Shown: in pieces, positions 3,054 through 17,441 of the stretch
Layout of the letters: the number at the start of each line of letters is the position of its first letter
Position numbering within the stretch: the first letter of the stretch is position 1
Source of the DNA: a virus
IMG/VR virus record: IMGVR_UViG_3300038318_000146
Span: 1-20,339 of that record
DNA length: 20,339 bases
Reading direction: 5' to 3' (one strand)
The notes under the pieces: generated by a model
The model's database searches: none
Told to the model about the DNA's origin: nothing
What the model saw: the letters and a program-made list of their open reading frames with translations, nothing else
Position numbers and translations under genes: made by a program

Positions 3054-3254
3054 TTGGCAGATTTTAGAAAGGAAGGAGAAGCGAGTAAGAAATATATCAA
3101 TGGTGAAGAGTTTGTTGAAATCAACGTAGAGAACAAAAAACTCTATGTAAGTTATGAGGATCTTCTGCACCTCATTAATGTAGATTCACAGAGTGACAAG
3201 GGACACAAAATTGTGAACGTCTACAAGAATCAGAATAAACATCTCTACCTGTAA
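3054..3254 (+). CDS. Hypothetical protein (~66 aa; TTG start)
   Basis: SD-like GAGGT at 3041-3045 precedes in-frame TTG 3054. TATA-like TTTTATA near 3010-3016. T-run follows the stop. Confidence 0.55.
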   Translation: MADFRKEGEASKKYINGEEFVEINVENKKLYVSYEDLLHLINVDSQSDKGHKIVNVYKNQNKHLYL

Positions 3255-3276
3255 CCTTTTTTAAATCTCTTCAATT

Positions 3277-3329
3277 CTTCGAGTAAAACATCACTTTTCA
3301 GACACTACTTTTCACGGTGGTATATTTAT
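3277..3329 (+). repeat. Bipartite conserved motif, copy 2
   Basis: CTTCGAGTAAAACAT-N20-TCACGGTGGTATATTTAT; see copy 1 at 768-820. Confidence 0.85.
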
Positions 3330-3384
3330 TCATCCTAGCAGAGATAGGTCTGGAATTTGTATGTTTCTATATAAAGAGATAGGC

Positions 3385-3416
3385 TGACATACTCCCACGA
3401 CTAAAGTCGTGGGCTT
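3385..3416 (-). mobile_element. Orphan IS200/IS605-family (TnpB-type) right-end remnant
   Basis: Perfect hairpin CCCACGACT-AA-AGTCGTGGG at 3394-3413. The minus strand reads AAGCCCACGACTTTAGTCGTGGGAGTATGTCA, which matches my recollection of tnpB-element right ends. No tnpA or tnpB in the window. Confidence 0.6.
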
Positions 3417-3455
3417 TTTGCTGATATGATCGTAAAATTATCTTGAAGATAAAAC

Positions 3456-3473
3456 CGAAACCTTTAAATACTA
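3456..3473 (+). promoter_or_regulatory. BRE/TATA promoter CGAAACCTTTAAATACTA
   Basis: Matches the promoter upstream of terS (4867-4884) at 16/18. No convincing ORF downstream. Confidence 0.6.
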
Positions 3474-3629
3474 TTAAAGACAATAAATAAAATAGCAAAG
3501 GAATATTATATTATACTATAGCCAGTGCTATCGATTTTTACAAAATCTGCGAATAATGACTATATTCTTACCCTTTTTTTTTCGTTATCAATTCCGTTGT
3601 TTTGTGATATTACATTTCTTGTAGGAGAC

Positions 3630-3930
3630 AGTGTAATGATATTATTACACGTAATTATATTTTGATATTCATTACTCGTAATGCATATCATTCTGATCTT
3701 CCTTACACGTAAGGGAATAGTGTAATGATATTATAATTATCCTTACACGTAAGGATATTATGTACATATTATAATGTACATATGTACTTATGAAATTGCA
3801 TTTCATGTAATGACCATCTTACATGATTCTTACACGTGTAAGGAATATAATAATATATTTTTAAATCCCACCCCACCCGCGCTTCGCGCTCCTCCCCCGC
3901 CCTGCGGGGGCAGTATGTACTGTACATAAC
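3630..3930. other. Putative replication origin (iteron-like palindromes, AT-rich tract, GC-rich hairpins)
   Basis: Non-coding. 16-bp direct repeat AGTGTAATGATATTAT (3630-3645, 3719-3734). CCTTACACGTAAGG twice (3701-3714, 3741-3754). Palindrome CTTACACGTGTAAG (3829-3842). GC hairpins at 3879-3889 and 3894-3910. Five GTAC sites. Confidence 0.55.
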
Positions 3931-3940
3931 AATCTATTTT

Positions 3941-3955
3941 CAAAATAATTAAATA
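3941..3955 (+). promoter_or_regulatory. TATA-like promoter (CAAAATA-ATTAAATA) for the 3980 operon
   Basis: ATTAAATA at 3948-3955 ends 24 nt upstream of ATG 3980. Confidence 0.55.
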
Positions 3956-3979
3956 CTATACTTCCTTACACTATACTCA

Positions 3980-4159
3980 ATGGCTATAACAACTTGTAAG
4001 GTATGCGGTAACGCATATGAAACCACAGAAGAGGATGCTAACATTCCTCTTTCATGCGCAGGGGAAAAAGATAGGATCTGTAACAGTTGCTACCTGGAAC
4101 AGATTTGGCAGAATGAGACATTGCATACGTATTGTGTAGGTGAAGAGGATAGGAATTAA
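3980..4159 (+). CDS. Small zinc-finger protein (59 aa; not in ORF track)
   Basis: Hand translation MAITTCKVCGNAYETTEEDANIPLSCAGEKDRICNSCYLEQIWQNETLHTYCVGEEDRN* with two CxxC pairs; TATA box upstream. Confidence 0.75.
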   Translation: MAITTCKVCGNAYETTEEDANIPLSCAGEKDRICNSCYLEQIWQNETLHTYCVGEEDRN

Positions 4160-4172
4160 GGAGTGATGAGTA

Positions 4173-4484
4173 ATGAATGAACCACTATTTTGTGAATGTT
4201 GTGGACAGTCTTTAGAAGAACTACGTAAGGAAATAGAAGAGAATGGTGTTCCAAGAGTAGCGGGCAGTAAACAACTGAAATGTGGTAAGCATTACCTCAC
4301 AGAACGCGGTGATGTTGAGTCTACCGGTAGTTACATGGACTACTGTAGTGATTGTGGCTCAAAACTCGAATATGAGGATTACAAGTTAATCTACGAATCA
4401 CATCCGTGGGGATCAACTACTGCTACTGAAACGTTGATTGGTGGTTACAGATGTCATGCGTGTGGGTTTGAGACAGAGGTGTAA
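4173..4484 (+). CDS. Zinc-ribbon protein (103 aa)
   Basis: CECCG, CGKH, CSDCG and CHACG motifs; SD GGAGTGA upstream. Confidence 0.8.
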   Translation: MNEPLFCECCGQSLEELRKEIEENGVPRVAGSKQLKCGKHYLTERGDVESTGSYMDYCSDCGSKLEYEDYKLIYESHPWGSTTATETLIGGYRCHACGFETEV

Positions 4485-4487
4485 GGA

Positions 4488-4658
4488 ATGAAAGTCGGTG
4501 AATTAATCAAGGAATTAAAAAAGTATGAATCTGAAATGGAGGTTAGATATTTTTATCTTGATTCATTTGGACGTATAGAAGGCGAGATAATTACTGAAAT
4601 TGAAATATTGTGTCCAGATGAATCAGATAATTATGAAGAATTTGTATTAATTTCTTAA
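4488..4658 (+). CDS. Small MKVxELI-type phage protein (56 aa; not in ORF track)
   Basis: MKVGELIKELKKYESEMEVRYFYLDSFGRIEGEIITEIEILCPDESDNYEEFVLIS*; AAGGA precedes the ATG. Confidence 0.7.
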   Translation: MKVGELIKELKKYESEMEVRYFYLDSFGRIEGEIITEIEILCPDESDNYEEFVLIS

Positions 4659-4673
4659 AGGATGATGATTAAA

Positions 4674-4826
4674 ATGAAGGTTAAAGAATTAATTGAGAAG
4701 TTACAGATGTATGATCAGGAAAGTATTGTAAGAACAGAACATGAAGGCGAATACTGTGGTGCTCATATATTTGACATTATAGTAAGAAATGATGAAGATT
4801 TTGGTAAATTTATTATGATTATTTAA
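4674..4826 (+). CDS. Small MKVxELI-type phage protein, paralog (50 aa; not in ORF track)
   Basis: MKVKELIEKLQMYDQESIVRTEHEGEYCGAHIFDIIVRNDEDFGKFIMII*; N-terminus similar to the 4488 ORF. Confidence 0.7.
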   Translation: MKVKELIEKLQMYDQESIVRTEHEGEYCGAHIFDIIVRNDEDFGKFIMII

Positions 4827-4866
4827 TCTTTTCTTACACTTTTCTTAACTTTTTCTCACTTTTATA
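4827..4866 (+). terminator. Pyrimidine/oligo-T archaeal-type terminator
   Basis: Four CTTTT(T) units directly after the stop codon and before the terS promoter. Confidence 0.5.
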
Positions 4867-4884
4867 CGAAACATTTAAATAGTA
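4867..4884 (+). promoter_or_regulatory. BRE/TATA promoter for the packaging operon (CGAAACATTTAAATAGTA)
   Basis: Canonical TTTAAATA preceded by a purine-rich BRE; near-identical copy at 3456. Confidence 0.7.
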
Positions 4885-4941
4885 GTATTTTCAGATATTA
4901 TACTATCTATTTTATATTAACTATTTTTCGAGGTGTCTTAC

Positions 4942-5430
4942 ATGAAACAGGGTGTAAAAGTTGGAGACAAGATTGTTTCCAATAAAAATGTAAAGGGTTG
5001 TGTGTTTTGTCAGAATCCAGATTTGAGTGCAGCAGTTGACCCAATTCTTTTTACGGCAAGTATTCCCATCAATGAACTGAAGAGTAAACTTGAAGCGGAT
5101 GGTATTTTTGTTGATGTTGCTGATCTCAAGTTACATCGTGAGCATATCTTTTTTGAGTATGATGAGAGTGCTGAATCCGATTTAGATATTGAGATTCAGA
5201 AGATTAAGGACACGGAAAATGTCGATGTTATTACAGAGGAACTTGCTAAGATTAACCTACTTGAACGTAGAATGGTTTTAGAGGGTAAGGAAAATAGTCC
5301 TACTCATGCAAAACTCTTACGTGAGAAGCGTGAACTTCTTTTGCTGAAAGCGCGTCTTGATGGTGAGATTGTTGATAAAGTTGAACACATTGTTCCTGCC
5401 TGGGTGCAGTATATTGAAGAAGAGAAATAA
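4942..5430 (+). CDS. terS: Terminase small subunit (start ATG 4942)
   Basis: Lies directly upstream of TerL with a TAATG stop/start overlap. N-terminal CVFC followed by helical and coiled segments. SD GAGGTG at 4930-4935. Confidence 0.7.
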   Translation: MKQGVKVGDKIVSNKNVKGCVFCQNPDLSAAVDPILFTASIPINELKSKLEADGIFVDVADLKLHREHIFFEYDESAESDLDIEIQKIKDTENVDVITEELAKINLLERRMVLEGKENSPTHAKLLREKRELLLLKARLDGEIVDKVEHIVPAWVQYIEEEK

Positions 5431-6905
5431 TGTCAAATATTGTTTATCATGGTAAACATCTTACTCTTTTTAACATTGCAAAATACATGCTTGGTTACGA
5501 GAAAATAACTAAAGATGTTCATAAAGAGTGGTGTGATAACCTTGAAGAAGTTATTAAGACTCGCAAACGTATTATGCGGTTAAAACCGCGTGGAACTTAC
5601 AAGACTACTATCTATGATGTTTCTTTTGTTATTGATCGTCTGCTTGATGATTACGTGAAACATGATGGTAAATTCACCTTACGTATTCTCATTACATCTG
5701 CAACCAACGATTTAGCAGAGCAGATTCTTTCTGAAATCAAAGAACAATTAAAGACTAATGAAAATTTGAAACAATTTTTTGCAGATTTCGGCAATGAAAA
5801 TATTATTGTCAAGGACAATCAGCAGGAAGTGGTTTTATATCCGCGTATTGTTAAGAAAGAACCAAATCTTAAAGCGCGTGGCGCTCTTGCTGCATTAACA
5901 TCAGAGCATTATGATATAATTATACTCGATGATGTGGTTAATAATGAAGATCGTGAATCTGCAACTATTAGAGAACAAAAGAAACGATGGTATAAAGATT
6001 TAATCTCTATTTTGGAGCCTGATGGTCTTTTAATGGTCATAGGCACGAGGTGGAGCGACAGTGAAATTTACGGCGAAATTATCGAGCAAAATCCAAAAAT
6101 ACCTGAATTTATGCGTTATGATATTGAGATTGATTCTATCATTGATGCTACAGGTAAACCAAAGTATCCATCCATCTACAACGAACAAAAGATTCAAGCA
6201 TTACGTATCGAAAAGGGTGCAGTAGAGTTTTCAAGTCAGTATTTAAATCAACCATTACCATCTGAAACACAGTTATTTAACATTGAAAATATGCATTATT
6301 ACACTGAACTGAAACTCCCACAGGAACGCGCACAGAATCCCTATTTCAAGGATTGTAGGCATGTTATTTACGTTGATCCTGCACTCGGTAATGAAAATGA
6401 TTATTGTGTAATTGTTGTGGGTGCAATTAAGGATCATGTTCTTTACGTAAGAGATTGTTGGTTAAGTAATACGTCACCGCCTAATGTCTCTATTGAAAAA
6501 ATGGTGTATTATTACAATTTTTATAATTGTGAAGAACTTGGCATTGAAACAAATGGTTTCCAGAGTCTTATTTCACAATTCCTCAAAGATCGTAATGATA
6601 AAATCAAAGACATGCGTAAGCGCATGAAGATTAAAGAAATTAAGAATCAGAAGAGAAAGCGGATTCGTATTGAGTCTGTTGAACCGTTTGTTACATCGGG
6701 AAAAGTCTTGTTCCGTGATGATTGGACAGAAGCGTATCCTGAGTTAATTAATCAATTAGTACGGTATCCGGTTCACAAACACGATGATGCCCCCGATGCG
6801 CTTGAAGGGCTTGTGCGAATGACAATCAATAGAGGTTCAGCATTAATAGACAAAGGAACACGCAGTAAACGTAAATTCATGATTGGAATAAATAGGAGAC
6901 ACTAA
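5430..6905 (+). CDS. terL: Terminase large subunit
   Basis: Walker A-like KPRGTYKTT, Walker B IILDDV, coupling motif IGTRW, and RNase H-like nuclease residues YVDPA, GIETNGFQ and HDDAPDALEG. Confidence 0.95.
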   Translation: MSNIVYHGKHLTLFNIAKYMLGYEKITKDVHKEWCDNLEEVIKTRKRIMRLKPRGTYKTTIYDVSFVIDRLLDDYVKHDGKFTLRILITSATNDLAEQILSEIKEQLKTNENLKQFFADFGNENIIVKDNQQEVVLYPRIVKKEPNLKARGALAALTSEHYDIIILDDVVNNEDRESATIREQKKRWYKDLISILEPDGLLMVIGTRWSDSEIYGEIIEQNPKIPEFMRYDIEIDSIIDATGKPKYPSIYNEQKIQALRIEKGAVEFSSQYLNQPLPSETQLFNIENMHYYTELKLPQERAQNPYFKDCRHVIYVDPALGNENDYCVIVVGAIKDHVLYVRDCWLSNTSPPNVSIEKMVYYYNFYNCEELGIETNGFQSLISQFLKDRNDKIKDMRKRMKIKEIKNQKRKRIRIESVEPFVTSGKVLFRDDWTEAYPELINQLVRYPVHKHDDAPDALEGLVRMTINRGSALIDKGTRSKRKFMIGINRRH

Positions 6906-6906
6906 T

Positions 6907-8268
6907 ATGGATAATGAAAATGCATCAATAGATTTAGAGCAGAAAAAATCTAAAATTGTTAAGGTTTTTGCATCGACTGGAATAGAGCGTAAGGATACTG
7001 TATATAAAGCAGGTGCTTACAGGAATTTTGATACAACTAATAGATTCAACTTGTATCGACAACTCTCGCTTACAAGTCCTCATGTGTTCATTCCGCTTCA
7101 GAAACTTGCCCTTACACTTGTAAAAGGTATCAGGTTTGAAGGAAAATCATCTGTTGTAAAGAATTTTGAAAAGTGGTCCGATAGAATCAATTTTGAGGAG
7201 AAAACACAAACTCTTGCACGATTACTATGTAGGGATGGAACTTACGTAGGACTTTATAATAATGTCAAGAATCCTGACAAAATGGGATTTGAACCCCTCC
7301 TTATGTCACAAACCACCATTGTTCCAAATGGAGTAACAAAGGGTAGTGCAGACACTACATTTATTCTTACACCACCTGTTAATCGCTTTTATGTCAATGA
7401 AATGGGTAATTTAAATGATTTAGAGGTAGGTTCTTACCGTCCAAATCAGGTAATGTATGGTTCATTCTGTGCGAATGATTACACGTTCAGAGATATTTTA
7501 GGTAGAGAAACGTATGGTATCTATGGCACTTCTCTGATTACGCCTATTGAGGATCTTATCTATAAATACTTAGATTTGGTTGAAGGTTACACTAATTACA
7601 TTAAAAAGTATGGTATTGGACGTTACTTTATTGACTACCGTATTCTTGGTGATATGCTTGCTTCCGGTGATATTTCAATGGTAGAAGCACAGGAAATCAT
7701 GCAGGAATTGAGCGATGAGCATCAGTATATTGCAGAGAATCAGGATATTATTGGTGCAGGATTTGATATTAAACAGTTAGATTCAGGTGGAAGTAACATC
7801 AATGTTACGGGATTCAAAGAATCGCTTGAAACCGATATTCAGGTTGGACTATTGCAGGCTCCTCTTACAATGGGTAGAGCAGAAGGAACTACGTATGCAG
7901 CGGGATATGTTTCCGAAGCAGATAGGTTAGTTGTGCTCGAAGGGTTACAAAAGAAGATTATGAGTATCCTGAATGATGAAGGTGGAATTGTCAAACAACG
8001 CGCGGTTGCAATGGGTAAGAATCCCGATGATATTAAAGTAGTCTTTGAAGAGTTATCAAAACCTGCTGTGCAGCCGGGTGATTTACTTGATGCTTACACG
8101 ATGTCTGTTATTAATAAACCTGAACTGCGTATATCGCTTGGATTCCCAAAAGATATGATTGAGAAAGATGAGCGTGATACTGGAGATAATACCATAGAAC
8201 TCTTGAAGCGTGGAAGAAAGAGTAGAAAACCTACTGATAATGGAATGAAATATCCTAGTGAAGAATAA
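6907..8268 (+). CDS. Portal protein
   Basis: 453 aa, immediately after terL and before a gp7-like gene. The segment IQVGLLQAPLTMGRAEGTTYAAG resembles the portal-family motif. Confidence 0.75.
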   Translation: MDNENASIDLEQKKSKIVKVFASTGIERKDTVYKAGAYRNFDTTNRFNLYRQLSLTSPHVFIPLQKLALTLVKGIRFEGKSSVVKNFEKWSDRINFEEKTQTLARLLCRDGTYVGLYNNVKNPDKMGFEPLLMSQTTIVPNGVTKGSADTTFILTPPVNRFYVNEMGNLNDLEVGSYRPNQVMYGSFCANDYTFRDILGRETYGIYGTSLITPIEDLIYKYLDLVEGYTNYIKKYGIGRYFIDYRILGDMLASGDISMVEAQEIMQELSDEHQYIAENQDIIGAGFDIKQLDSGGSNINVTGFKESLETDIQVGLLQAPLTMGRAEGTTYAAGYVSEADRLVVLEGLQKKIMSILNDEGGIVKQRAVAMGKNPDDIKVVFEELSKPAVQPGDLLDAYTMSVINKPELRISLGFPKDMIEKDERDTGDNTIELLKRGRKSRKPTDNGMKYPSEE

Positions 8269-8318
8269 CATATAACAACCTTTTTAATGTTGTTACAGGA
8301 AATAAAATAGTGATATAC

Positions 8319-9071
8319 ATGGAGTTGAATGTTGTTTATAATGAGGATTGTTTAGAAGGGATGAATCGGATTGAAGATAAGTCAGTTGATATGATTCTTT
8401 GCGATCTTCCTTATGGGACTACTCAAAACAAGTGGGATAGTGTTATACCCCTTGATTTATTGTGGGAACAATATAAAAGAATTATAAAAGATAATGGTGC
8501 TATTGTTCTTACAGGAAGTCAACCATTTACTTCATTGTTGGGCGCATCCAATATTAAAATGTTAAAATATTCATGGGTTTGGAAAAAAACATCAGTAACA
8601 GGTCATTTGAATGCAAAAAGAATGCCTATGAAAAATCATGAAGAAATATTAGTATTTTATCAAAAACAACCAACATATAATCCACAAAATGTAATTGATT
8701 TTAATAAGGTTGTTAAACGTGGTAATAACGGTAATTGTTATGGAGACAGTGGTAAGGTTAATTTTCAAGAAAAAACTAATTATCCACGTTCAATTTTAGA
8801 ATTTAAAAGTGTTGGTAAAACTATTCATCCAACCCAAAAACCTGTTGATCTCTTTGAATACTTAATCAAAACTTATACAAATGAAGGTGATACTGTTTTA
8901 GATAATTGTATGGGTAGCGGCACTACTGCAATCGCTTGTATGAACACGAATAGGAATTACATTGGGTTTGAATTAGATAAAGGGTATTATGATATTATTC
9001 TTGAAAGGATTAAGAATCATAAACCTGATGTAATTCAAGAGAGTAAACAAGGATTAGAAGCATGGTTTTAA
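8319..9071 (+). CDS. Orphan DNA methyltransferase, N4-C/N6-A beta class
   Basis: NEDCLEGM...MILCDLPYG (motif IV), HPTQKP, VLDNCMGSGTT (motif I), IGFELD. No cognate endonuclease nearby. Confidence 0.93.
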   Translation: MELNVVYNEDCLEGMNRIEDKSVDMILCDLPYGTTQNKWDSVIPLDLLWEQYKRIIKDNGAIVLTGSQPFTSLLGASNIKMLKYSWVWKKTSVTGHLNAKRMPMKNHEEILVFYQKQPTYNPQNVIDFNKVVKRGNNGNCYGDSGKVNFQEKTNYPRSILEFKSVGKTIHPTQKPVDLFEYLIKTYTNEGDTVLDNCMGSGTTAIACMNTNRNYIGFELDKGYYDIILERIKNHKPDVIQESKQGLEAWF

Positions 9072-12631: not shown

Positions 12632-12841
12632 ATGGATTATATTACAGCGTTAAAGACTATTGGCGCTTTTGCGTTTATTGCAGTATGCATTGCACTCCTT
12701 TTCATATGGTTTGCTGCATTTTGCTATATTGCGTATGTGATGGTGGGTATGATTGGTATTACAGGAATTTGGCAGACTGTTTGTGGCATTGTGCTTGGTC
12801 TGTTTGTTGCATCGCTTCCTACCGTGTTTGCTCGTAAGTAA
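12632..12841 (+). CDS. Small membrane protein with two predicted TM helices
   Basis: Two long hydrophobic stretches and a basic C-terminus; SD AGGTGA at 12621-12626. Confidence 0.75.
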   Translation: MDYITALKTIGAFAFIAVCIALLFIWFAAFCYIAYVMVGMIGITGIWQTVCGIVLGLFVASLPTVFARK

Positions 12842-12852
12842 GAGGAATGATT

Positions 12853-13692
12853 ATGGCACTTGGTAAAAGGTCTTTAGATAAAGCAGTAGAAGAGATACAG
12901 CAGAAGGAAGATCCTACTGCATCATTCTCCTATGATGATGCAATTCTTTCTCTTCAGAGTAAAGACATTATTTCGATTTATGGAGACAAAGGCACAGGTA
13001 AGACAACTACTACTTACGGTTTAATCGCTCCAGGTTCAAGTGTAAAAGTTTTATCGTTTGATACTAACAGTGTCTTACCAATGGAACTTGATTATATCAA
13101 GAATCAGAATCTTAATATTGAAGTGCTTAATTCTCTTCGACCATATGATCGTTCAACGGCAGAAGATATGTTACGCACTTCGGAAATTGTTTGTAAATGG
13201 AATGCATATTTACTTGATTATATTAAAGATAAAGATGAAAAAAATAATACTGAAACCGATTGGATTGTTGTAGATGGTATCGAACAGTATACAGAGATTT
13301 GTGAGAATGCGGGACGTTTTGAGTTAAAAATAGATAAGTATCAGGGTGTTCCCAATCCTACAGTTTGGAAGATTCGTAACATGCATATTGATAACCTACA
13401 TGATAAGTGTGTTGCAACTGCAAAGGTTGGCGTTATCTACATTATGTATCCCAAGACTGATACATCACTTGTAAGAATGGGTCAGGTTATTGAATCTGAA
13501 CGGACACCAAAATGGGTTAGTAAAGTAATGAAAGAGTCTCAAATAAAGATTCATACAACGAGTGAATTTGTTAAAGAAAATGCTCGTTACTTTGCAATTG
13601 TTGAATCGAGTAAGAAGGAGAAGAAGTATCCTCCAGGTAAGTATGATGTTACCGGGACAACTCTGTATAAACTAATTAATGGAAAGGAGTGA
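12853..13692 (+). CDS. P-loop ATPase, RecA superfamily (AAA_24 / Sak4-like recombination protein)
   Basis: Walker A GDKGTGKT, Walker B WIVVDG, and W..RN motif (WKIRN); lies next to the SSB. Confidence 0.7.
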   Translation: MALGKRSLDKAVEEIQQKEDPTASFSYDDAILSLQSKDIISIYGDKGTGKTTTTYGLIAPGSSVKVLSFDTNSVLPMELDYIKNQNLNIEVLNSLRPYDRSTAEDMLRTSEIVCKWNAYLLDYIKDKDEKNNTETDWIVVDGIEQYTEICENAGRFELKIDKYQGVPNPTVWKIRNMHIDNLHDKCVATAKVGVIYIMYPKTDTSLVRMGQVIESERTPKWVSKVMKESQIKIHTTSEFVKENARYFAIVESSKKEKKYPPGKYDVTGTTLYKLINGKE

Positions 13693-16498: not shown

Positions 16499-17441
16499 GA
16501 TTGATAAAATATATTCATCAAAATATTCACGTAGTTATACTAAAGATGAACTAGTGGCGATGAATAAATTATCTCTAGAAGAGAAGATAAAATTAACTAA
16601 TGATATTATAGATGAATTTTATACAGTAACTAATGGTTTAATGTATGTTTCTTTCAGTGGTGGTAAAGATTCTACTGTAATGGCTGATATTATTCTGAAA
16701 AGGTATCCCGATACACCTTTAGTTTTCTGTAATACGGGTTTGGAATATCCAGAAATTGTAGAATTTGTAAAACGTAGACAGAATGTAGTGTTTCTTAAAC
16801 CATCAAAACCATTTCATAAAGTATTAGAAGAACATGGTTATCCGGTTATTAGTAAGGAACAATCGCGTTATATTGAGGATGTGCAAAATAAAAGAAATAA
16901 TTGGGAAAGAAGATTAACAGGTAATAGTTTTGTTATTTCTAAAAAATGGAGATATTTAGTTGATGCACCTTTCAAAATATCTGAAAAGTGTTGTTTATAT
17001 CTCAAAAAAAATCCAATGAAAAAATATGAACATGAAACAAAGAGACAACCTCTGATTGGTGTAATGTTTAATGATAGTAATCTGCGTTTAAAATATATGT
17101 TAGAACAGGGTTTAATTCGTAATAATTCACGATTACAATGCACACCATTAGGTTTCTGGTCAGAGCAGGATATTTTAGAATACTTAGCAACATATAATCT
17201 TGATTACGCTTCAGTGTATGGTGATTTAACAAAGGAAAACGGTATATATAAATTATCAGGAGTACAACATACAGGTTGTATGTTCTGTATGTTTGGGGTT
17301 CATCTTGAGAAGGGCGAGAACAAGTTTCAACGAATGAAGAAAACACATCCTAAACAATGGGAATTTTGTATACATAAGTTAGGATTGGGTGAAATCCTTG
17401 ATTACATTGGTGTTGACTACGGTAAAGATAAATTCTGGTAG
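16491..17441 (+). CDS. PAPS-reductase-family PP-loop protein 1 (Fe-S motif)
   Basis: SFSGGKDS PP-loop, FCNTGLEYPE, KCC, TGCMFC. Confidence 0.9.
   Translation: MSKIDKIYSSKYSRSYTKDELVAMNKLSLEEKIKLTNDIIDEFYTVTNGLMYVSFSGGKDSTVMADIILKRYPDTPLVFCNTGLEYPEIVEFVKRRQNVVFLKPSKPFHKVLEEHGYPVISKEQSRYIEDVQNKRNNWERRLTGNSFVISKKWRYLVDAPFKISEKCCLYLKKNPMKKYEHETKRQPLIGVMFNDSNLRLKYMLEQGLIRNNSRLQCTPLGFWSEQDILEYLATYNLDYASVYGDLTKENGIYKLSGVQHTGCMFCMFGVHLEKGENKFQRMKKTHPKQWEFCIHKLGLGEILDYIGVDYGKDKFW

Follow-up and report, generated by a model that had tools for sequence, protein, structure and literature searches.

A group of uncultured tailed viruses of archaeal type, from methane-producing habitats, that has purged the tetranucleotide GTAC from its genomes retains it, in modules whose copy number varies, at a non-coding locus close to promoter-like elements, where GTAC itself is probably a functional binding signal. 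The organisation of the locus suggests iteron-type sites, i.e., predicted protein-binding sites that would control an operon of ~29 kb and/or the start of replication, a reading to which we give about even chances. The window analysed here is a whole linear IMG/VR contig of 20,339 bp, for which CheckV estimates 29% of a genome. On the same reading, the five GTAC sites that cluster in it would be what is left, in reduced form, of a conserved family of GTAC-repeat modules. The occurrence of GTAC in several unit types and at two loci, against the background of the purge and in regular arrays, points to a cis-acting element with a GTAC/NGTACN core, and the position of the locus suggests control of a packaging/replication operon, of replication initiation, or of both.

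The GTAC purge and its local exemption

The window contains exactly eight GTAC sites (3762, 3776, 3784, 3917, 3922, 6759, 17262, and 20300), five of which lie within 164 bp (P ~3e-6, simulation with 8 random sites). All coordinates given in the earlier note are thus confirmed, and the depletion that it had described is borne out by computed expectations of 56-95 sites: 66.6 from a zero-order model, 55.8 +/- 7.7 from dinucleotide shuffles of the window (more than 8 sites in 100/100 shuffles), while a maximal-order Markov model predicts 95 (z = -11.7). Within the non-coding 725-bp stretch at 3255-3979, five GTAC sites are observed versus 4.3 expected from the local Markov model, because this stretch is rich in GTA and TAC trinucleotides, whereas the remaining 19.6 kb of the window holds three sites versus 91 expected. 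The cluster in the window is therefore an exemption from the purge and not an enrichment. The residual lone site at 6759..6762 lies inside the large terminase gene (TerL), and the sites at 17262 and 20300 are also intragenic; such leftovers in coding regions vary between relatives.

Other short palindromes are purged from the window as well. There is no AGCT (67 expected by zero order and 23.5 by the Markov model, z -6.0), and there are 7 CTAG (67 and 24, respectively), 2 GGCC (21 expected), 33 GATC (67 and 93), and 15 CTNAG sites (67 and 36), while CTGCAG and GCATGC have 0 sites each. This composition-aware depletion, the hallmark by which restriction/methylation-site avoidance is recognised, is found in the window and in three near-complete relatives (G001-G003), in which AGCT stands at 0.01-0.04 and GTAC at 0.10-0.22 of expectation. 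In the same long genomes, CTGCAG is absent (13-20 expected by the Markov model) and GCATGC occurs 0-1 times (8-12 expected). Among the purged words, GTAC alone is clustered. When the loci of nine relatives are pooled (5.6 kb of sequences that are related to one another), GTAC occurs 123 times versus 14 expected by zero order, while the ratios of observed to expected sites are 0/14 for AGCT, 4/14 for CTAG, and 8/14 for GATC. Since these other words are low within the locus and GTAC is not, the DNA of the locus appears to be native and the exemption GTAC-specific; the persistence of the purge of other words further argues that GTAC itself is under positive constraint there. A foreign origin of the locus was ruled out on the same ground. 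It should be noted that TTAA is also nearly absent at the locus (6 observed in nine relatives versus 46 expected by the Markov model and 93 by zero order, in a very AT-rich region), unlike its mild depletion genome-wide.

The control region and its counterparts in related viruses

The five clustered GTAC sites of the window belong to the main non-coding control region, 560 bp long (locus A), that extends from a terminator-like hairpin to the first gene of the ~29-kb operon. The hairpin (3394..3425, plus strand; 8 bp with six G-C pairs, followed by a T-run) marks the left border and the end of the upstream unit. A search of Rfam with positions 3200-4100 gave a single sub-threshold match, which falls on this hairpin, and a tRNA search found none, which leaves a reading as an att site without support. 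In one contig from a fermentation metagenome (run X2), 48 bp that include the hairpin (3384-3431) are missing. Next follows promoter PA1 (3455..3474, plus strand), a 20-nt element, CCGAAACCTTTAAATACTAT, which we take, on the established archaeal promoter consensus, to comprise a BRE (CGAAAC) and a TATA box (TTTAAATA). T-runs downstream of PA1 (T5 at 3536-3540 and T9 at 3575-3583) suggest a short transcript. PA1-type 20-mers occur three to four times per genome and always face transcription units (at locus A, at a second locus termed locus B, and before the small terminase gene, TerS); their consensus is (A/C)CGAAAC(A/C)TTTA(A/T)ATA(C/G)TA(T/G). At loci A and B the promoter is followed by a predicted short transcript, conserved and possibly structured, that ends at T-runs, and these transcripts are candidate small RNAs. 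The third BRE/TATA promoter in the window (4866..4885, plus strand) lies directly before the putative small terminase gene, which implies that the terminase genes are driven separately from the GTAC locus.

Between PA1 and the operon, the region is filled with repeats and palindromes whose hairpin z-scores range from -3.3 to -4.5. A field of TTAC/GTAA palindromes (3630..3755) contains TTACACGTAA at 3645, 3703, and 3743, flanked as (T)CCTTACACGTAAGG(A) at 3700-3714 and 3741-3755, and two AGTGTAATGATATTAT repeats (3630-3645 and 3719-3734); AGTGTAATGAT repeats accompany these palindromes upstream of the first three GTAC sites. This trio (3762/3776/3784; 3756..3787) is made up of two 14-nt direct repeats (TATTATGTACATAT, TATAATGTACATAT) and a GTAC; the 12-bp palindrome GTACATATGTAC (3776-3787) lies within it. 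Both of the closest locus variants (L003 and G002) keep the trio, which has hairpin potential (z = -3.3) and appears from its sequence to be the reduced counterpart of the tandem arrays of relatives. Two further palindromes follow, TTATGAAAT-TGC-ATTTCATGTAA at 3788..3810 and TTCTTACACGTGTAAGGAA at 3827..3845, and then a pure A/T tract of ~22 bp (3844..3866), which might act as an unwinding element or else be DNA upstream of a promoter; a similar tract lies after the last module in array-type relatives.

To the right of the A/T tract, a GC-rich element (3867..3913; z = -4.2) forms two hairpins, GCGC-TTC-GCGC (3879-3889) and CCCCCGC-CCT-GCGGGGG (3894-3910). In a genome of 36% GC, this double hairpin is found only in the reduced variant of the locus (window, L003, and G002). 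The window and L003 share GCGC-TTC-GCGC as first stem, whereas G002 (L013, ~110-160) has GGCC-TTC-GGCC, i.e., the change is compensatory and affects both arms. A piece of 40-50 bp at the GC hairpins has 2-10x the summed depth of its flanks in four metagenome runs, with loose ends into unrelated sequence, which implies that comparable DNA must occur elsewhere in the communities; it could be a repeat element, a match due to low complexity, or DNA shared with a host. The right GTAC pair, TATGTAC-T-GTACATA (3914..3928, GTAC at 3917 and 3922), lies ~60 bp upstream of the predicted PA2 start. It is unique to the window, and L003 and G002 keep one site each. The earlier note had read this sequence and GTACATATGTAC as palindromes, correctly in both cases. 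Promoter PA2 (3949..3971, plus strand) is weak, with a TATA-like box (TTAAATAC, 3949-3956) 31 nt ahead of the ATG at 3980, so its mRNA would be leaderless or nearly so. A CCTTACAC half-site, TTCCTTACAC, lies between this TATA box and the start (3962-3971), a position that would be typical of repressor binding; on archaeal promoter geometry, PA2 is a predicted promoter, possibly under repressor control.

A terminase-based scan yielded 16 related viral contigs with TerL 82-95% identical, among them one complete genome (G002, 69.4 kb, which assembles as a circle with a 113-bp terminal overlap) and two near-complete genomes (G001, 64.7 kb; G003, 62.0 kb). The purge is common to all related contigs found. 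The earlier note had listed the lack of a GTAC cluster at the homologous locus in relatives among the results that would speak against it; such a cluster is present in 13/13 relatives whose contigs cover it, mostly as far larger arrays. Tandem arrays occur in 10 of the 13, with 11-27 GTAC sites at the locus and depletion in the remainder of each contig; L009 has the most, 27 GTAC sites in 662 bp, and G001 and L008, for example, have 19 each. The array units, GTACA(TA)GTACTT, are represented by GTACAGTACTT (11 bp) and GTACATAGTACTT (13 bp), so that each array is a directional series of alternating TGTACA and AGTACT hexamers. Three to five array modules are present per locus, spaced ~100-115 bp apart and with two to five units per array, and in every relative each GTAC array is directly followed by the palindrome TTATGAAAT-N3-ATTTCATGTAA (second arm ATTTCAT). 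Loci with ~90-95% identical flanks differ in unit number by whole units, a change in length that, by analogy, is typical of iterons and operator arrays. Indeed, the arrays have the features by which iterons are recognised, namely short direct repeats of near-helical period in non-coding DNA (in the relatives; in the window, two 14-nt direct repeats). GTAC occurs in at least five sequence contexts at two loci, including TATWATGTACATAT, GTACATAGTACTT, GTACAGTACTT, TTTGTACAT (12-bp period), and CACTTGTAC-N8-GTAC, which indicates that the shared element is the tetramer/hexamer core and not one expanding unit.

The reduced locus type (window, L003, and G002) has only 4-5 GTAC sites, ordered as one module with three GTAC, the GC-rich double hairpin, and then one or two GTAC. 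These viruses get by with so few sites that large arrays must be dispensable. One landfill data set holds both array-type and reduced-type loci. The palindromic pairs described in the earlier note exist in the window, but they are peculiar to the reduced variant and not the general layout, since the relatives carry directional tandem arrays. GTAC positions are no visibly better conserved than adjacent non-GTAC positions, and ~5 units are decayed; the substitution rates (0.102 for GTAC versus 0.093 for other columns) are unreliable because arrays of unequal length misalign. Within IMG/VR, the exact array is confined to this virus group. Distant relatives (TerL 45-49% identical) share the gene order and have different purge profiles: one has no AGCT, one is chiefly low in GATC, and L053 has 0 CTAG, 1 GTAC of 79 expected, and 1 AGCT of 30 expected. 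No GTAC arrays were found near the terminase of these distant relatives, even in GTAC-purging L053 (within 10 kb), which argues that the arrays are recent and lineage specific.

The earlier note had proposed that GTAC is avoided everywhere except at one locus. GTAC is indeed purged genome-wide and kept specifically at locus A. It is also found at locus B, ~15 kb from locus A across small genes of mixed orientation and outside the window (G002, 15.3-16.2 kb; G003, 40.2-41.0 kb; G001, 62.2-63.1 kb). Locus B repeats the layout of locus A, beginning with a promoter and a predicted short transcript, rich in GC and with T-runs; then come a GC hairpin, CCTTACAC, a GTAC pair, TTATGAAAT, TTAC/GTAA repeats, and the first gene. 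The hairpin that precedes the GTAC pair, GCGCTTCGCGCTCC, is related to the GC hairpins of locus A, and TTAC/GTAA motifs cluster at locus B of the relatives as well. In G001, eight GTAC sites with ~12-bp spacing take the place of the pair. The first gene past locus B encodes a 122-aa protein with a sub-threshold winged-helix (wHTH) match.

Operon genes, methyltransferases, and the probable host

The operon downstream of locus A comprises genes for zinc-ribbon proteins, terminase, portal, methyltransferase, and replisome, and in G002 a one-directional gene block of 29 kb begins at the locus. Its first genes in the window (all on the plus strand) encode four small Cys-rich, zinc-ribbon-like proteins (3980-4159, 4173-4484, 4488-4658, and 4662-4826), whose zinc-ribbon matches are weak and which are candidate DNA-binding regulators. 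They are followed on the same strand by the putative small terminase TerS (4933-5430), TerL (5430-6905; 491 aa, uninterrupted), a probable portal (6907-8268, assigned by position only, with no family match), and an N6/N4 methyltransferase (8310-9071) between the presumed portal and a Mu F-like gene. Farther plus-strand genes encode a DUF3987 protein, an AAA_24 ATPase, an RFC/gp44-like clamp loader, a dCTP deaminase, two PAPS-reductase-family proteins flanking a Dam-like methyltransferase, and a family-B polymerase. In L013/G002, L014, and L015/G003, TerL is ~840 aa long and contains a LAGLIDADG_3 domain (proteins P0136 and P0137); this insert near residue 170 is probably an intein or a homing-endonuclease insertion.

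The two viral methyltransferases are of the CcrM-like and phage N6A types, and both look adenine-specific; GTm6AC is possible as a target of these enzymes but not indicated. Over >90% of its length, the methyltransferase at 8310-9071 is 65-68% identical to annotated DNA methyltransferases of Bacillus, and such a high similarity, unusual for a virus with archaeal hallmarks, suggests a recent gene transfer across domains. Searches of Pfam and PHROGs with 30 flanking and accessory ORFs of the window and G002 returned no DNA-binding family above threshold, and no RHH, ParR, or ParA-type genes were recognised in the regions scanned. A comparison of gene presence and absence between array-type and reduced-type genomes found no gene that co-varies with the arrays.

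The best match of TerL is that of the ANME-1 virus ANMV-1 (32.5% identity, E = 2e-76), compared with ≤25% for bacterial phages, and a nucleotide search against isolate phages gave no match. L053, whose TerL is 49% identical, encodes a histone-fold protein (12797-13021) and an MT-A70 methyltransferase. The viruses come from fermentation, landfill, digester, wastewater, and bioreactor metagenomes. Within this context, the TerL match to ANMV-1, the BRE/TATA promoters, the histone-fold gene of the distant relative, and the habitats indicate that the host is probably an archaeon. The sole TerL match in genome collections, a 1.3-kb contig in a Cloacimonadota MAG, is probably mis-binned and says nothing about the host.

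Possible functions and comparison with known systems

On the reading favoured here, the GTAC units would be bound cooperatively by a sequence-specific protein of viral or host origin, and that the assembly of this protein on the array would control the firing of the operon and/or the initiation of replication nearby. On one side of the locus is a BRE/TATA promoter followed by a predicted short transcript, and on the other the weak promoter of the ~29-kb operon. The need for the binding signal would outweigh the selection that purges GTAC together with AGCT, CTAG, GGCC, and other palindromes. Against a simple operator stands the distance of most arrays from the nearest gene start, which at 190-650 bp is far. 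The viruses present a paradox: they have added up to 27 restriction-type sites at one locus while ~90-97% of such sites have been removed elsewhere. It is possible that the array is protected, either by the bound protein or by methylation. Alternatively, the pressure behind the purge may be something other than plain cutting of unmethylated GTAC (the virus may, for instance, avoid host methylation that would lay it open to methyl-dependent restriction in another host), or the benefit of the array may simply exceed its cost.

Other explanations of the locus have to be weighed against cooperative protein binding. The arrays, inverted repeats, and A/T tract could form a replication origin in which methylation of GTAC by the host or the virus gates initiation, so that the methylated infecting genome is told from unmethylated progeny DNA, as by GATC/Dam/SeqA at oriC; we regard this as doubtful. 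The locus does have iteron-like arrays with a period of 11-13 bp, palindromes that may fold into hairpins, and a tract of A/T only, and it heads the operon of replication genes. Its strong adjoining promoter could provide transcriptional/R-loop activation of the kind seen at T4 origins. We also take TTATGAAAT / CTTACATGAAAT to resemble the Methanothermobacter mini-ORB, but no ORB repeats adjoining orc1/cdc6, the arrangement of archaeal ORB/Orc1 origins, were found. Cdc6_C and MCM gave no match in the window or in the three near-complete relatives (archaeal control genomes do match), nor do the complete relatives have Orc1/Cdc6, MCM, or Rep. In G002 the minimum of cumulative GC skew coincides with the locus; however, the skew tracks the orientation of the genes, its minimum in G001 is at locus B, and the layout of locus A is itself duplicated at locus B. 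Neither the gene content nor the skew singles out the locus as the origin proposed in the earlier note, and the lysis/latency switch that it had offered as a second possibility has no support, as no integrase was found; the temperate reading was dropped on the lack of a tyrosine integrase in the three near-complete relatives. Precedents for methylation at such sites come from orphan GTAC methyltransferases and haloarchaeal CTAG clusters (PMC10609329, PMC11033074). Persistent orphan methyltransferases that place m4C at GTAC are reported from several methanogen lineages, including the Methanoregula/Methanospirillum group, and from Nitrososphaerales, and methylation is known at GTAC, AGCT, CTNAG, and GATC in the Methanospirillum/Methanoregula group and at GTAC/CTAG/GATC in Methanocaldococcus (PMC10609329, PMC11033074). 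The match between the purged words and these methanogen motifs is suggestive only. An array of host-methylated GTAC (m4C) might also serve as an epigenetic sensor that times replication/packaging, with a regulator, an initiator, or the terminase reading the methylated (infecting) or unmethylated (progeny) state; this is unlikely.

A P1-type pac site for headful packaging, in which hexamer clusters flank the region cleaved by terminase, possibly under methylation control, is also improbable here. The window has three TGTAC(A/T) hexamers on the left and two on the right, ~130 bp apart, in a P1-like geometry, with TerS and TerL downstream of the locus and transcribed in its direction. The Mu F / SPP1 gp7-family gene suggests headful packaging, to which this family is linked, the circular assembly of G002 (113-bp overlap) is consistent with a permuted genome, and four contigs terminate within the locus. 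However, contig ends at tandem repeats are normal assembly behaviour, the locus is between 1.5 and 3.5 kb away from TerL and the genes that separate them vary, a promoter of its own serves the terminase pair, and the same motifs occur at locus B, far from the terminase. Clusters within or at the small-terminase gene, as in a pac site, were not found, with at least four genes and a separate promoter in between. It is likewise improbable that the arrays have no function, either as a slippage-prone minisatellite that outpaces the purge or as recently acquired foreign DNA. Copy number does vary by whole units, some lineages are nearly unit-free, and the GTAC count at the locus in the window equals the local Markov expectation; in pL6 plasmids, a clustered residue of the purged word CTAG has been explained by recently acquired foreign DNA (PMC11431627). 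Here, however, several unit types unrelated to one another contain GTAC, two loci retain it, the cluster recurs in 13/13 relatives from many independent samples, the remaining purged words stay depleted at the locus, and its promoter and palindrome motifs are common to the rest of the genome.

Cooperative binding to GTAC iterons would have its closest parallels in the MetJ met-boxes, the omega heptads of pSM19035, the 11-bp iterons of ParR/parC, and the 11-bp repeats of F55 in SSV1, all of which are bound cooperatively by small dimeric proteins at head-to-tail, partly palindromic units of 6-13 bp that vary in number and lie in promoter regions. The GTAC arrays resemble these sites in their head-to-tail, partly palindromic units in a promoter region, but they are larger and lie farther from the gene start. 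In phage P1, pac is inside the small-terminase gene, and its cleavage is controlled by hexamer methylation. The viral locus shares with P1 pac (TGATCA/G) two groups of palindromic hexamers (here TGTAC(A/T)), ~100-130 bp apart, near terminase genes; unlike P1 pac, it lies 1-3.5 kb upstream with genes in between, has a GTAC and not a GATC core, and in relatives comprises 3-5 arrays instead of two groups. The P1 site is described as having seven hexanucleotide repeats and being under the control of adenine methylation (PMC11260489, citing Sternberg & Coulby 1990).

GATC is clustered at the E. coli oriC, where Dam and SeqA act on it. Like this cluster and like haloarchaeal CTAG, the viral GTAC is a methylatable 4-bp palindrome concentrated at one regulatory locus, and like CTAG in haloarchaea (PMC10609329), it is under-represented elsewhere in the genome; in the latter case, under-represented methylated CTAG has been reported to cluster upstream of orc genes (PMC10609329). 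Unlike both, the viral sites are regular tandem iterons instead of scattered sites, and they lie in a genome without Orc1/Cdc6. Several palindromes of 4-6 bp are strongly depleted or absent in HF1-group haloviruses too, which lack CTAG and GATC, with HRTV-7 also without AGCT (PMC7230728). Between genes, at strategic points, these haloviruses also have long, conserved, AT-rich repeats that act as promoters (PMC7230728). Arrays of an avoided word, such as the up to 27 copies of GTAC at one locus here, are a difference from the HF1 group in so far as a search of that paper found none mentioned (PMC7230728).

Palindrome avoidance and iterons are each commonplace, but it is unusual for an avoided word to form the core of the iteron. 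Every close relative in which the locus was covered shows this pattern, which singles out one among several purged words. Known themes (site avoidance, iterons, and clusters of methylatable sites) appear in a new combination in an uncultured virus group of archaeal type. If methylation is read at the GTAC sites, epigenetic timing of the Dam/SeqA or P1-pac kind would extend to archaeal viruses, and a methylation sensor, if true, would be without precedent among archaeal viruses as a developmental switch gated by methylation. The GTAC locus provides a falsifiable handle on cis-regulation in uncultured viruses, in a region where almost no adjacent gene is of known function. Whether the paradox is resolved by a protein that shields the array, by methylation, or by selection unrelated to restriction would inform our understanding of virus-host conflict in methanogenic communities.
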